Origin: Anaerolineae bacterium
GTDB lineage: Bacteria; Chloroflexota; Anaerolineae; Promineifilales; Promineifilaceae
Assembly: GCA_007123775.1 (NCBI GenBank)
Contig: SLGK01000001.1
Location: 2,120-66,119, forward strand
Direction of reading: 5' to 3'
DNA length: 64,000 nt
Shown: positions 1-64,000 of the stretch, in pieces
Layout of the letters: every line of letters starts with the position of its first letter
Numbering within the stretch: the first letter of the stretch is position 1
Notes under the pieces: model-generated
What the model was told of the DNA's origin: nothing
Databases searched by the model: none
The model's input: only the letters and a program-made list of their open reading frames with translations
Position numbers and translations under genes: made by a program

Positions 1-63
1 TTTTCGTAAGCCATCTTCCGTTAATAAATGTGGTTTGTTTAGAGCCATGTTGCCCCCAATATA

Positions 64-92
64 ACGAAAAATACCACGAAAAGGCGTGGTAT
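64..92 (-). terminator. Rho-independent terminator candidate downstream of the 201..2675 gene
   Basis: Perfect 8-bp stem ATACCACG/CGTGGTAT (71-78 / 85-92) with a 6-nt loop. Read on the minus strand it is followed directly by a T-run (A-run 67-70 on plus). Confidence 0.55.
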
Positions 93-200
93 CTTCCAGA
101 GTTTTTTATGTAGAGCCAGGATTATACCAAATAAAGAATTATTGTAAAGAGCAAGATCAACGGCGAGAATGACGGCGTTTTGGCAGCGGCTACGCCGTTC

Positions 201-2675
201 TTACGGCTCTACGGACAGCTCAACGATGGGCAAACTCTCGGCAGCGGGCGTCCCTACCAATTCGAGACGTTCGCCAGTCTGCCAGTTGTAAAAGCCGGTC
301 AGGAGCTGGTAGTTACCAGGGGGCGCGTCGGCCGGAACGGGAATGGCGTAGCGAGCCATGACGTAGTCGCCAATCGACCAATGCGCCATCGGATAGACAC
401 CCCGACAGGGATCGCCATCGTCCTGCCCCCACAGCGGCCCGCCGGTAGCGGAATTGAAGGCCGGACCCAACAGGTGATTGAAAGCGCTGATACGGCCGTC
501 TTGCGCCTCATCCACCCGATAATAGAGCGAGAAAAAAAGTATTTCCCCGGCCTGAACGGAAATCGCTGGCGGGTCAAAGCCGAGCAGGGTCAGACCATTG
601 GGCCATACGGCCGTTGCCGGTTGCGCTGGCTGCCATGCCTGAGCGGCCAGCCGGGGTGCCGCATACCCCAGATGATAAGGCGGCGGTTCAGGCAGCCACC
701 TTTCTGTTACCAGGCCGGTCCAGGGGAACAGGCTGGTAAGTTCGGGCAGCGGCGGCCGGCCCTCTGGCGGCAAGAAGGCCAGCAGATATTCATCCTCTGG
801 CGGCAAAACGGCACAGCCTGTGCCCGGATAAGCGGCCAGTCCGGTAGCCACATCGCCAGCCGCTACCGGCGCGTGGTCCGGCGGCGCATAATGGAGATAG
901 AGTGGCTCTGCCGGCCAAACCTGCCACAACAGTTCTTCCACGACGGCCGCCCGCGCCAGGTCAATCTCCAGGTTGCTGCGCGGCTCATCGTCGCCCCGGC
1001 TGGCTGGCCAGGGCCGGGTTTCACAGTCAGCGATCATGGCAGCCGTTAAAGTGCGCGCACCAAGCACTACCTTGTTGTCAGCCACCAGCTTGACGTTAGG
1101 CTGGAAACATTCCACGTAGCCCACCGGCGGGTAACGCTCGTGGGCCATACGGCGAAACAAGTCCGGGTCCACCGGATTTTGGGCCACCACGCGATCATTT
1201 AAGCCGTAGGTGTCGATAAAATTCACGGTAGGCAGCACCCAGGCCGGCACGCCAACCGGCCCGACGACAAGCACGGGATGCGTTTCGGGCGCAACCAGCA
1301 GACCCATCTCGCGGGGCGGATAGATAGCAACCTGATGCTCGTAAAATGCCTTGTGCTCTTGATGGCGCATGCCCACGTGGTGGGGAATTAGCCAGGCTTG
1401 CAGGCTATCAAACAGTTGGGTGTAAGGCTGCATCACGGCCGGAAAGTAGGGTGTCACCGGCACCACCATGACGTAGGTGTCCTCGCGGCTGGTCAGCTCG
1501 CGCGTCGCGGCCCAATGGGTCCACGGTATGGGGATTGCACTTAGAATGATGAGCGCCAGCATAAGGAGTGTCTGGCTGGCCGTAGCCGCCAGCGCATTGA
1601 GCAGCCAGACGGCCGTTAACAAGAGCAACGGGATTAGATGGCTGTATACCCGGTATTCAAAGAAGTCGCCGCCAATCAGAAACGTGTAGTAACTCAGGTG
1701 GGCCAACAAGACACCTACCGCGGCTAAGGTTACGGGCCAATGGGTGTCAAAAAGCAGCCGGTCGGGCCTGTGGCGCAGGCTGTGCGTAAAGCTGCGGGCC
1801 TGGCGCAACAGAAAGATCAAGACCAACGCCAGCCAAAACCATAGTGCGTATTCCAGGATAAAGGAGAGCAGGTAGCGAGCGCCGCTTGCCGGCCAGTAGG
1901 CCACCGACTTGGCCGCGTGGGTATTGGGCAGCCAGGCGTCGTAGGTCTGCCAGCGCCACAGAAAGTGAACGGCCGTAATGAGAAAGGGCGACAGGGGCGC
2001 AATATATTGGCGCAGGAGGTGGCCACGGTCTAGCTGACGAAAACGGCCGTCGTACCAGAGCCGCAACAGGCGCAGACCACCTAAAAGGAGAGTCGCCGCT
2101 ACCATTAGCAGACCGTCGGGCCGGGTCAGAGCCGTCAGAACGGCCGTAATAGAAAGCCAGGTCTGCCAGCGGGCCGTATAGCGGGGCAAGAAGAACAGCG
2201 CGTACAGCCAGGCCATCACCCAAAAGTTGAACATGGCCGTTTCCAGGCCGGAACTGCTCCACATGAGAAAGGTGCGGTTGGTCAACAGGCCCAGCAGCAG
2301 GAGTCCAACCAAACCCAATCGAACCCGGTCCAGAAACGGCCGTAGCGCCATCTGCCACAACATGGCCACGCTAAGCAGCAGCGAGCCGTAGGTAAAACCG
2401 AGTGAAATCAGGTTAGCCGACGCCGGCGGGGCCACGCCAGTCAAACGCCATACCAGGTCGAGCAAAATCACCCACAGAAAGCTGGTATACCCTTCTACCG
2501 GTCGAAACGGCGGCAAGTTCCAGGTATAGCCATAGCCGAGGTAGCTATTGCTCACATAGCGAAAGGCGATAAACGCATCATCGGTTAGAAACCAATACGC
2601 CTGCCACCCAACCCACAATCCGGCGGCAGCGGCCACCAATAGAAGGAACAATGTCCACGTTTGACGTCTGCTCAT
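201..2675 (-). CDS. Polytopic membrane protein, GT-C-fold glycosyl/arabinofuranosyl-transferase-like, with large soluble C-terminal domain
   Basis: 836-aa ORF from a TTG at 2711; the ATG at 2675 (MSRRQTW...) is preferred. The N-terminal ~480 aa has many hydrophobic helices with an early loop motif TDDAFIAFRY typical of GT-C enzymes, followed by a ~330-aa non-membrane domain. Confidence 0.65.
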   Translation of the reverse strand: MSRRQTWTLFLLLVAAAAGLWVGWQAYWFLTDDAFIAFRYVSNSYLGYGYTWNLPPFRPVEGYTSFLWVILLDLVWRLTGVAPPASANLISLGFTYGSLLLSVAMLWQMALRPFLDRVRLGLVGLLLLGLLTNRTFLMWSSSGLETAMFNFWVMAWLYALFFLPRYTARWQTWLSITAVLTALTRPDGLLMVAATLLLGGLRLLRLWYDGRFRQLDRGHLLRQYIAPLSPFLITAVHFLWRWQTYDAWLPNTHAAKSVAYWPASGARYLLSFILEYALWFWLALVLIFLLRQARSFTHSLRHRPDRLLFDTHWPVTLAAVGVLLAHLSYYTFLIGGDFFEYRVYSHLIPLLLLTAVWLLNALAATASQTLLMLALIILSAIPIPWTHWAATRELTSREDTYVMVVPVTPYFPAVMQPYTQLFDSLQAWLIPHHVGMRHQEHKAFYEHQVAIYPPREMGLLVAPETHPVLVVGPVGVPAWVLPTVNFIDTYGLNDRVVAQNPVDPDLFRRMAHERYPPVGYVECFQPNVKLVADNKVVLGARTLTAAMIADCETRPWPASRGDDEPRSNLEIDLARAAVVEELLWQVWPAEPLYLHYAPPDHAPVAAGDVATGLAAYPGTGCAVLPPEDEYLLAFLPPEGRPPLPELTSLFPWTGLVTERWLPEPPPYHLGYAAPRLAAQAWQPAQPATAVWPNGLTLLGFDPPAISVQAGEILFFSLYYRVDEAQDGRISAFNHLLGPAFNSATGGPLWGQDDGDPCRGVYPMAHWSIGDYVMARYAIPVPADAPPGNYQLLTGFYNWQTGERLELVGTPAAESLPIVELSVEP

Positions 2676-2756
2676 GGTTGGTATTATGGCACTGGGAAAA
2701 AGGAGGAGCAAACTGGGTGCCCGAAGTAATCTGGGGAAGACACCCCCAAAGGTAAA

Positions 2757-62741: not shown

Positions 62742-62760
62742 GGTTTGGTTCCTTATTCAA

Positions 62761-62826
62761 GTGGCGGGTAGCGAGTGGCGGGTGGCGAGTGGCATACACC
62801 CGCAACCCGCTACTCGCCACTCGCTG
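62761..62826. repeat. Inverted pair of heptamer arrays (GTGGCGG/GTAGCGA/GTGGCGG/GTGGCGA versus CCCGCTA/CTCGCCA/CTCGC)
   Basis: Left arm 62761-62793 and right arm about 62799-62826, between the eno stop and the clpP start. Same heptamer family as 4188-4242; the 24191-24286 array has a related GTGGCGRA unit but period 8. Confidence 0.85.
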
Positions 62827-62830
62827 CTCA

Positions 62831-64000
62831 TTAGGCTAAATTGGTAAAGGCGGCCCGGCCCGCATATACGGCCGATTCACCCAAATCTTCTTCGATACGC
62901 AACAGTTGATTGTACTTGGCCACGCGATCACTGCGAGCGGGCGCGCCCGTCTTGATCTGGCCAGCGTTGAGGGCTACCACCAGGTCGGCAATGGTGGCGT
63001 CTTCACTTTCACCACTGCGATGCGAGACAACGGCCGTCCAGCCGTGCCGCTGCACCAGTTCAACCGCCTCAATAGCTTCGGTCAACGTGCCGATCTGGTT
63101 CACCTTGCAGAGCAAGCTGTTGGCCGCTTTGCGGGCAAACCCTTCCTGGATGCGTTTCACATTCGTCACCAGCAGGTCATCACCCACAATCTGGACGCGG
63201 TCGCCAACTCTCTCCATCAGCAGCGTCCAGCTATCCCAATCATCCTCGTGTAACCCATCTTCAAGAGAAATGATGGGATACTGATCACACCAGGAAACCC
63301 ACAGGTCAACCATTTCTTCGCCGCTCAACACCTTGCCTTCCGTAGACAGGTGATACTTGCCGTCTTTGAAAAACTCCGAAGCAGCCGGATCCATGGCCAG
63401 CATAATCTGGTCACCAGGCACATAACCGGCTTTTTCAATCGCTTCCAAAATCAGGTCAAACGCTTCGACGTTGGTCGAAACTTGCGGCGCAAAACCACCT
63501 TCATCCCCAACCAGGGTCCGATGGCCTTTGCTGACCAGTACTTTCTTCAGGTTGTGGTAAATTTCGACGCCCCAACGCAGGCCCTCGCTGAAGCTTTCCG
63601 CACCGACCGGCATAATCATAAACTCTTGAACGTCCGGGCCGCCAGGGGCGTGTGTACCGCCGTTCATGATGTTCATCATGGGCACGGGCAGGGTGCGGGC
63701 ATAAACACCACCTAAATAACGATATAGGGGCATTTCCTGGCTGGCGGCGGCGGCTTTGGCCACCGCCATAGAGACGCCGAGGATAGCGTTGGCTCCCAGC
63801 CGTTGTTTATTATCGGTGCCGTCTAATTCAATCATCGCTAGATCAATACCCACCTGATCCACTGCTTCCCAACCGTACAGGGTGTCGGCAATTTCCCCAC
63901 TGACGGCATCAATGGCATCTAGTACGCCTTTGCCCAGGTAGCGGTCGGCCTCACCATCTCGTTTTTCCCAGGCTTCGTGAACACCGGTTGAAGCTCCGGA
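62831..64000 (-). CDS. eno: Enolase (phosphopyruvate hydratase), 5' end beyond the window
   Basis: The reverse translation continues in frame to the window edge: [26 protein letters not shown]...[20 protein letters not shown]...[15 protein letters not shown]... are canonical enolase motifs. The N-terminal ~40 aa are missing. Confidence 0.95.

Follow-up and report, generated by a model that had tools for sequence, protein, structure and literature searches.

We analyzed a 64-kb stretch of contig SLGK01000001.1, assembled from an Anaerolineae bacterium of the Promineifilaceae (GCA_007123775.1). This stretch, taken at its full length of 64,000 nucleotides and hereafter called the window, is covered to 94.8% by a gene model of greedy open reading frames (ORFs), and throughout these genes lie copies of one palindromic octamer, ACGGCCGT. 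The exact count is 92 copies, equivalent to 1.44 per kb or one every 696 bp, in close agreement with the first-pass annotation of this DNA, which had estimated about 90 copies, or one every 700 bp or so. ACGGCCGT is the commonest of all octamers in the window, and the next palindromic octamer, GGCCGGCC, occurs 15 times. As had also been noted at first pass, the octamer is often part of extended forms, with 29 occurrences of AACGGCCGTT and 7 of AAACGGCCGTTT; the base on its 5' side is A in 59 of the 92 copies, and that on its 3' side is T in 52. The core hexamer, CGGCCG, is not avoided in the window outside ACGGCCGT.

Dinucleotide-preserving shuffles of the window returned a mean of 1.38 copies and never more than 5. 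Markov models of orders 1 to 5, trained with ACGGCCGT masked, predicted 1.4, 2.9, 3.0, 3.9 and 4.5 copies, respectively. The unmasked order-5 model predicted 33 copies, an expectation that is inflated because most occurrences of its sub-words lie within ACGGCCGT itself (92 of the 121 ACGGCCG). Overall, ACGGCCGT is present in the window at around 20 to 70 times its chance frequency, which bears out the earlier claim that its count lies far above the Markov expectation.

The frame and strand tallies, which rest on the first-pass ORFs before positions 29721-29981 were reassigned, sum to 91 copies. All three frames are used: 44 copies read ACG GCC GTn (TAV in the protein), 36 read nAC GGC CGT ([NDYH]GR) and 11 read nnA CGG CCG Tnn (xRPx), with 53 copies on the + and 38 on the - strand with respect to genes. 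The ORF at 29721-29981 was rejected, the region being a tRNA-Pro gene followed by spacer. With this correction, 89 copies are genic (97%) and three are intergenic (12258, 29873 and 29891); since the copy at 12258 lies between genes, ACGGCCGT is not limited to reading frames. The distribution over all frames, both gene strands and spacers is the one originally described, and the peptides cited in its support are all correct (LLDENGRLY at 9784, GGTAVADG at 10001 and QQRPFLF at 8571). When synonymous codons were shuffled within genes, retaining the proteins and the codon usage of each gene, 13.1 ± 3.2 copies were obtained (maximum 24), compared to the 91 observed; shuffling the order of codons returned 2.4. 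In 770 kb of pooled DNA from relatives, with repeat arrays masked, the density of ACGGCCGT is 2.04 per kb in coding and 1.97 per kb in intergenic DNA (intergenic GC content, 48%). ACGGCCGT acts as a DNA word and is neither confined to one frame nor accounted for by codon or dipeptide effects. The first-pass statement that selection acts on DNA rather than on a peptide is confirmed in its first part by the frames, the shuffles and the pooled densities; its second part, selection, is inseparable from a repair-type drive.

A bias of codons, dipeptides or peptides, the remains of a mobile element or an assembly artefact might be invoked, given that 91 of the 92 copies were initially assigned to ORFs and that frame 0 (TAV) is dominant. 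We give such explanations practically no weight, as they are refuted by the use of all frames, by the synonymous shuffle, by reverse peptides that are not enriched (see below), by a pooled intergenic density equal to the coding one and by the recurrence of the same sites in independent assemblies, long-read complete genomes included. The flanks of ACGGCCGT hold less than 0.2 bit of information beyond two bases on either side, whereas repetitive extragenic palindromes and miniature inverted-repeat transposable elements are extragenic sequences of at least 20 bp with conserved flanks, a description that does not suit ACGGCCGT.

To describe the effect of ACGGCCGT on proteins, we compared peptides in the window with the expectation from amino-acid composition. 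TAV occurs 48 times (8.9 expected) and NGR 20 times (3.4 expected), and the reverse peptides, VAT and RGN, occur 5 times and never, respectively. TAV is spelled ACGGCCGTn in 44 of its 48 occurrences, 34 of them with GTT, a minor valine codon. Altogether ACGGCCGT occupies 91 of the 111 contexts that synonymous choice leaves open to it (TAV, 44 of 48; [NDYH]GR, 36 of 41; xRPx, 11 of 22), compared to 1 of 50 compatible contexts in relatives that lack the octamer. It is near saturation of its compatible contexts. Moreover, composition predicts only about 22 contexts of the frame-0 and frame-1 types (TAV, NGR, DGR, YGR and HGR), and 89 are observed; therefore around three-quarters of the copies in these two frames probably needed an amino-acid change. 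The pressure is exerted by the DNA on the proteins, which ACGGCCGT distorts.

We then looked at the distribution of ACGGCCGT in other genomes. The proteins of the window are found unchanged on contigs of the metagenome-assembled genomes (MAGs) GCA_003562215.1 and GCA_007118385.1 and of ENA/Logan assemblies, the contigs being 99.2-100% identical. As an anchor between species we used the LutB/LldF-type iron-sulfur protein encoded in the window, whose next-best homologues are around 70% identical and belong to MAGs named Anaerolinea sp., Ardenticatenaceae, Caldilineales and Chloroflexi. These LutB-anchored loci were chosen irrespective of ACGGCCGT. Six of them carry it, at 1.40 (L008), 1.96 (L009), 2.34 (L142), 1.50 (L258), 1.19 (L259, GC 50%) and 1.21 (L261, GC 65%) copies per kb, and four lack the trait, with 0 (L141 and L143) or 0.05 (L144 and L260) copies per kb. 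A scan of one genome per GTDB species for three copies spaced 60-72 bases apart returned at least 119 stretches. Among the matches listed, 40 Chloroflexota MAG species account for about 90 stretches, which hold dispersed copies at 1-3.5 per kb; these species are labelled Ardenticatenaceae, Candidatus Promineifilaceae, Ca. Leptofilum, Anaerolineae or Chloroflexota. The listed matches from other phyla (Streptomyces, Planctomycetota, Myxococcota and others) were discarded: the ten that we inspected are tandem, CRISPR or coding repeats, and the remaining ones contain 3-7 copies each, mostly with array-like spacing. In the NCBI taxonomy, Ardenticatenaceae and Promineifilaceae represent the two orders of the class Ardenticatenia. 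The abundance of ACGGCCGT is a clade-wide trait of this class, found in Ardenticatenaceae, Promineifilaceae and Ca. Leptofilum, and the check in related genomes proposed at first pass has hence returned a positive answer. Our evidence comprises 64 kb of the source genome, together with 7 LutB-anchored loci and about 90 loci selected by pattern, all from relatives. When the 40 species and the window are pooled (752 kb), 1,661 copies are counted and 19 are expected, an 87-fold excess. Compared to GC-matched DNA without the trait, the excess is 76-fold (2,213 and 29 copies per Mb, respectively).

The codon alignment of LutB, with seven lineages that carry ACGGCCGT and four that lack it, allowed us to compare orthologous sites. 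The peptide GNGR is spelled with the octamer in 7 of 7 lineages with the trait and in 0 of 4 without it, DNGR in 6 of 7 and 0 of 4, and QRP[FLW] in 6 of 7 and 1 of 4. Over these three invariant sites, the octamer is present in 19 of 21 cases and 1 of 12, respectively, and lineages without the trait use assorted synonymous codons. Two further LutB sites of the window lineage fall on amino-acid changes (LTAEA to LTAVA and DAAVW to ETAVW). The same sites are found in orthologous codons of independent assemblies. On this alignment, the conservation of positions in orthologues is real; it is no proof of selection on single sites, because conserved peptides together with saturation would also yield it. 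A metagenome scan with the LutB alignment recovered 80 distant loci (45-69% identity), none of which carries ACGGCCGT and which serve only as negative controls, and the neighbor-joining tree of LutB has too little resolution for tallying how often the trait was gained or lost. Seven contigs of the window's species, 99.2-100% identical, differ by 89 single-nucleotide polymorphisms, none of which falls in ACGGCCGT, a comparison that has no statistical power since just 1.1 are expected. Separately, window positions 20281-34233 were aligned with L004, from another strain of the species. Up to around 24225 the two diverge by 0.8% (31 differences over 3.9 kb), and beyond it by 0.01% (1 over 10 kb); a small indel lies at this point, the LutB/LutC junction, which resembles the boundary of a recombination tract.

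In the 752-kb pool we measured how strictly the sequence is specified. Variants that differ from ACGGCCGT at one of the inner six positions occur at 0.4-2.0 times background, and transversions at 0.4-1.0 times. Among variants of the first or last base, T (TCGGCCGT) is enriched 3.7-fold, G (GCGGCCGT) 2.8-fold and C 1.0-fold. ACGGCCGT is specified at all eight positions. Free decay of the 1,661 copies would lift each variant well over its background of about 30, and no such lift is seen. Since this halo of decayed variants is missing, copy loss seems to be opposed: simple equilibrium reasoning suggests that selection or correction acts against it at all positions, whatever the type of change.

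The closest known phenomenon is HIP1, the highly iterated palindrome (HIP) of cyanobacteria. HIP1 (GCGATCGC) is a palindromic octamer present at around 1-3 copies per kb, 15- to 300-fold over expectation (Robinson 1995; PMC4390886; PMC5861425). It was already known in 1995, and what it does is still under debate, the proposals being a by-product of mismatch repair, a role in chromosome architecture and a signal for uptake or recombination. According to Elhai 2015, one-off variants of HIP1 are biased to the first and last base, and a G-meC ratchet was modeled (PMC4390886). Xu, Lawrence & Durand 2018 proposed a role of HIP1 in chromosome organization (PMC5861425). The class defined on HIP1 is further characterized by periodic spacing over 10-90 kb and by an inner sequence that an orphan DNA methyltransferase of the genome targets. 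The CRISPR1 repeat of Synechocystis contains the HIP1-related CGATCG (PMC6604393). According to a recent preprint, methylated HIP1 raises the efficiency of transformation and recombination in Synechococcus 7002 (bioRxiv 10.1101/2024.09.10.611283).

By analogy with these proposals, ACGGCCGT may be a neutral by-product of biased repair, with near-cognate mismatches resolved toward the octamer by an Elhai-type ratchet or by very-short-patch repair linked to a methyltransferase. We consider this possible and yet doubtful. A genome-wide directional process of this type would affect coding and spacer DNA, phages and the repeats of CRISPR arrays alike, as is observed, and would nearly saturate the synonymous contexts; it would also leave copies at near-random spacing with no set-point of density. 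The one-off variants at the end positions are those that Elhai's ratchet predicts for HIP1, and stretches free of ACGGCCGT could be recent DNA awaiting conversion. However, Elhai's G-meC model predicts GCGGCCGC, with G/C ends, whose 4 copies in the window do not exceed expectation, and the real ends are A/T. T:G repair of the Vsr type drives C/G positions only, and yet the transversion variants are not raised. We looked for the signature of very-short-patch repair and found that C-to-T variants are not depleted (1.0-2.0 times background). Finally, neither a Vsr gene nor that of a cognate methyltransferase was seen in the motif search described below.

CGGCCG is the target of EagI and XmaIII, and GGCC that of HaeIII. 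Targets of restriction-modification systems resemble ACGGCCGT in their core palindrome and differ from it in that they are avoided, whereas ACGGCCGT accumulates. Avoidance of other palindromes is readily detectable in the window: CAGCTG, GAGCTC and GTGCAC are absent (24.3, 8.2 and 10.8 expected, respectively), and GGGCCC, CGATCG and GATATC occur once each (16.2, 12.4 and 9.6 expected). The purging is seen also in loci L011, L016 and L176: in the phage contig UViG (uncultivated virus genome) 3300048592_001391, CAGCTG is absent (8.2 expected) and GTGCAC occurs once (12.2 expected). These data suggest that several type II restriction systems are active in the clade. Host and phage purge six palindromes of 6 bp and nevertheless accumulate ACGGCCGT, which is therefore not treated as a restriction target. 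L141 (1-21413, on a 6.35-Mb contig of a relative without ACGGCCGT) contains a single CGGCCG, where 4.7 are expected, and 50 rather than the expected 110 copies of GGCC; this related lineage, which lacks the word, avoids its core. In L260 (1-21371, GCA_964464415.1), which also lacks it, CCGGCCGG has 27 copies in 21 kb and GGCCGGCC has 24, exceeding an order-1 model 12-fold and 8-fold, respectively, and an order-3 model around 2- to 3-fold. These octamers may be weaker variants of the word that keep its CGGCCG core and end in G/C; alternatively, codon usage at 63% GC may account for them.

A scan of IMG/VR with the triple-copy pattern at three spacings retrieved around 35 contigs, more than 20 of which carry ACGGCCGT at 1.2-3.7 copies per kb. 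One of them is UViG 3300048592_001391, with 3.68 copies per kb over 39 kb and PHROG matches to major head, head morphogenesis, portal, large terminase (TerL), protease, endolysin and helicase proteins. There, the octamer occupies 43 of 45 TAV, 59 of 62 [NDYH]GR and 23 of 28 xRPx contexts, and TAV occurs 45 times (5.0 expected). UViG 3300030606_000015 encodes TerL, a major head protein and a fusion of ParB with a methyltransferase (2.85 copies per kb), and L172 encodes TerL and a major head protein (2.65 copies per kb). Judging from these gene contents, several ACGGCCGT-rich contigs of IMG/VR are genuine tailed phages. L010, with genes for ParA, Ant, a transglycosylase and an FtsK-like protein, looks more like a plasmid or an integrative and conjugative element (ICE) than a phage; the UViG pooled over L010 and L152 carries 3.40 copies per kb. 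All kinds of replicons in the survey, namely chromosomes, tailed phages and the plasmid- or ICE-like element, carry ACGGCCGT. The octamer is also found inside the CRISPR repeats of several Ardenticatenia MAGs, such as GTCTAAATCCCTCTTGGAAGCTCACGGCCGTTCTGAC in L091 (33-2368) and the repeats of arrays in L061, L094, L096, L034, L078, L114, L056 and L058; the triple-copy pattern is biased toward such arrays. As a separate observation, UViG 3300048592_001391 (L011) encodes, at 1229-2221 and 12024-13187, a ParB-like protein and a PAPS-reductase-like protein (phrog_12882, E-value 2e-126), and also carries FtsK-like and helicase genes; no integrase was seen in the 39 kb analyzed.

The phages also bear on the idea that ACGGCCGT is an uptake signal for natural transformation, accumulating through biased uptake and recombination, a role lately put forward for HIP1 too. 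The DNA uptake sequence (DUS) of Neisseria and the uptake signal sequence (USS) of Haemophilus and other Pasteurellaceae are asymmetric words recognized by a competence receptor, and prophages and islands contain few of them. ACGGCCGT shares with them its density of around 1-3 per kb, its presence on both strands and in all frames and the distortion of peptides, and it has A/T-rich flanks. An inverted pair of copies forms a terminator-like hairpin next to tRNA-Pro (Table 1), reminiscent of the occasional DUS pairs in terminators, and the window holds Tad/Flp-type pilus genes, a weak argument as uptake does not usually rely on Tad pili. On the other hand, ACGGCCGT is a perfect palindrome and the known uptake words are asymmetric 9- to 12-mers. 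These known signals are also poor in phages, whereas tailed phages carry ACGGCCGT at 2.6-3.7 copies per kb, with a 9-fold distortion of TAV compared to 5-fold in the chromosome. An uptake signal is hence improbable.

To study the spacing of copies, we used 176 kb of word-bearing DNA chosen without bias. Inter-copy distances are near exponential (coefficient of variation 1.14), with a mild excess at 30-100 bp and a few long gaps. This distribution is relevant to the possibility that ACGGCCGT is the binding site of an abundant nucleoid-structuring protein, along the lines that Xu, Lawrence & Durand drew for HIP1 (PMC5861425). A palindrome of 8-10 bp suits a dimeric DNA-binding protein, the positions of copies are conserved between lineages and the HIP1 proposal offers a precedent. 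Local spacing is nevertheless near-random, and phages and the plasmid-like element are as dense in copies as chromosomes, which makes this role quite improbable.

The analogy with HIP1 drawn at first pass fits every feature that we tested, the end-position bias of variants included. Both words have comparable density and excess, occur in all frames and in spacers, extend over a whole clade, keep their positions in orthologues, have their one-off variants at the ends and lie inside CRISPR repeats. Their cores, CGATCG and CGGCCG, are both classic words of methyltransferases and restriction enzymes. They differ in sequence and in host, cyanobacteria and Chloroflexota, respectively, and presumably arose independently. 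HIP1 ends in G/C, whereas ACGGCCGT ends in A/T, a misfit to the G-meC model of Elhai; the high density in tailed phages is a feature demonstrated here for ACGGCCGT. HIP1 proper is excluded, as the word is ACGGCCGT, the host belongs to Chloroflexota and CGATCG is among the purged hexamers of the window (1 observed, 12.4 expected). The first-pass reader knew of no description of this octamer, and we found none of ACGGCCGT as an iterated word in the open-access literature, where articles since 2012 on an 'iterated palindrome' concern cyanobacteria or mention HIP1 in passing. ACGGCCGT therefore joins the HIP class as a second, separate case of a phenomenon known until now only from cyanobacteria. 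Chi sites are another point of comparison, being short over-represented words that mark DNA for recombination, which could explain a benefit to phages. They differ from ACGGCCGT in being asymmetric, skewed to one replication strand, enriched only a few-fold and less apt to reshape proteins, and they are read by RecBCD or AddAB; ACGGCCGT, as a palindrome, has no orientation.

ACGGCCGT is imposed on all DNA resident in the clade, symmetrically on the duplex and close to saturation. Our preferred interpretation, which we hold tentatively, is that it constitutes a lineage-specific highly iterated palindrome of Ardenticatenia, the counterpart of HIP1, and serves as a recombination or repair tag read by a host protein. 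A dimeric sequence-specific protein of the host would recognize it as duplex DNA. The likeliest reader would be a putative orphan methyltransferase that targets the CGGCCG/GGCC core; either this enzyme or a partner would recognize the A/T ends. The octamer would mark DNA as compatible with host processing, that is recombination, repair and end protection, possibly through a Chi-like, methylation-dependent action analogous to that now proposed for HIP1. Copy-rich DNA would be kept or recombined better, and hosts and phages would therefore both gain by keeping their copies, which would come under purifying selection in both. New copies would be fixed wherever the protein tolerates the change. 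A stronger version, which we regard as rather unlikely, holds that this independently evolved second HIP system is an obligatory tag of replicon compatibility, read by a DNA-processing system of the host and needed by phages and plasmids at a density like that of the host or higher.

Several observations weigh against the preferred interpretation of a tag read by a host protein. A motif search of all ORFs in the window returned no DNA methyltransferase and only an RNA methyltransferase of the RlmL type. The same search for Vsr and methyltransferase motifs in the ORFs of around 0.9 Mb of DNA found no Vsr and no enzyme tied to ACGGCCGT. One candidate, a beta-class DPPY N6/N4 DNA methyltransferase (L055, 63-1046) that looks orphan and adjoins ABC-transporter genes, is the single chromosomal one in around 770 kb of related DNA. 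We rejected it as the cognate enzyme, since its family spans many phyla and is therefore specific neither to the clade nor to the word: its homologues in MAGs of Chloroflexota, Acidobacteriota, Planctomycetota and Bacillota are 70-76% identical. The counts at equilibrium fit selection and a whole-word repair bias alike. As ACGGCCGT is a palindrome without the strand skew that defines Chi, the Chi-like part of the proposal is an analogy only. No regular spacing, and hence no regulated density, was detectable in the 176 kb of word-bearing DNA. Finally, the density in phages is only roughly comparable to that in hosts, and not higher, because the phage contigs were selected for three close copies and the fair comparison is with host loci selected in the same way (1-3.5 per kb). 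Apart from this, an identity of 70-76% across phyla is unusually high for a DNA methyltransferase, and a phage-borne fusion of ParB with a methyltransferase is found in L174 (9824-11098).

All arguments on the function of HIPs have so far relied on one phylum and one word family, and a second case permits comparison. Models bound to the HIP1 sequence become checkable, such as the G-meC ratchet, whose predicted word, GCGGCCGC, is not enriched here. Proteins that track the word in both phyla would be candidates for the machinery; if the octamer is indeed a compatibility tag, comparing the gene sets that follow ACGGCCGT in Chloroflexota and HIP1 in cyanobacteria would point to what they share and answer the 30-year question of HIP function. 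In practical terms, ACGGCCGT can serve as a strong marker to bin contigs of Ardenticatenia and to link phages with these hosts, among them the filamentous Promineifilaceae found in activated sludge. Caution is required in reading TAV, NGR and DGR peptides in these proteins, as they are partly dictated by DNA.

Table 1. Copies of ACGGCCGT and associated features in the window
Feature	Position	Strand	Remarks
ACGGCCGT starts, 492-10001	492, 607, 1609, 1969, 2043, 2140, 2336, 3359, 3584, 3839, 4168, 4430, 4471, 4573, 6687, 6864, 7392, 7553, 8449, 8571, 8910, 9784, 9820, 10001		
ACGGCCGT starts, 11358-29891	11358, 12258, 15529, 15664, 15726, 17137, 18129, 20128, 20488, 21371, 21469, 21524, 21893, 23357, 23475, 23555, 23691, 24085, 29873, 29891		
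ACGGCCGT starts, 30247-49660	30247, 31533, 31658, 31848, 31936, 32606, 33416, 33762, 34065, 34617, 35472, 35682, 36044, 39292, 39693, 42194, 43121, 43840, 43988, 44638, 47258, 48373, 48505, 49603, 49660		
ACGGCCGT starts, 50520-63030	50520, 50601, 50679, 52331, 52412, 52943, 53890, 54887, 55170, 55636, 56282, 56727, 57010, 57451, 57616, 57868, 58435, 59998, 60034, 60639, 61191, 62636, 63030		
Two small genes, MoaD/ThiS-like in the matching MAG contig	9636-10183	+	3 copies in two frames: NGR 9784, xGR 9820, TAV 10001
Intergenic copy	12258-12265	.	Between aldehyde:ferredoxin oxidoreductase gene (10344-12161, -) and NrfD-type gene (12513-13736, -)
LutB/LldF-type iron-sulfur protein gene	22799-24193	+	Pfam LUD_dom and Fer4; 5 copies: 23357, 23475, 23555, 23691, 24085; interspecies anchor
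tRNA-Pro (cgg)	29786-29860		
Two extended copies, GAAAAACGGCCGTTTC / GAAACGGCCGTTTTC	29866-29905	+	Perfect 14-bp hairpin, then TTTTCC; directly 3' of tRNA-Pro
Longest stretch free of ACGGCCGT	24093-29872	.	5.8 kb, about 8 copies expected; LutC, two small ORFs, 445-aa protein, FAD-linked oxidase
Other gaps free of ACGGCCGT	12266-15528, 36052-39291, 39701-42193, 44646-47257		

The hairpin downstream of tRNA-Pro folds as RNA at -24.6 kcal/mol (z = -5.65), and none of 200 shuffles is equally stable. It was not flagged by a consensus terminator scan, because only four T follow the stem; from the predicted fold it looks like a terminator.

The five gaps free of ACGGCCGT measure 2.5-5.8 kb, have a normal GC content at third codon positions and offer almost no compatible peptide contexts. 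They host the NrfD/4Fe-4S/cytochrome operon, the genes from LutC to the FAD oxidase, a STAND NTPase gene and genes for large TadE-like proteins; these may be recent imports or encode tightly constrained proteins. The longest gap contains a single compatible context (PRPY), which is unoccupied, and the amino-acid changes that created copies in other regions did not occur there.

Three regions of the window (35411-39812, 40035-50319 and 55073-61436) contain further genes of note. They encode two adjacent STAND/AAA NTPase regulators, one of them with a BTAD domain, and a cluster of very large proteins that are TadE/Tad-like or carry Flg_new repeats. The same regions encode a 1677-aa FG-GAP/beta-propeller protein with a C-terminal AAA domain, which adjoins an nSTAND2 regulator.

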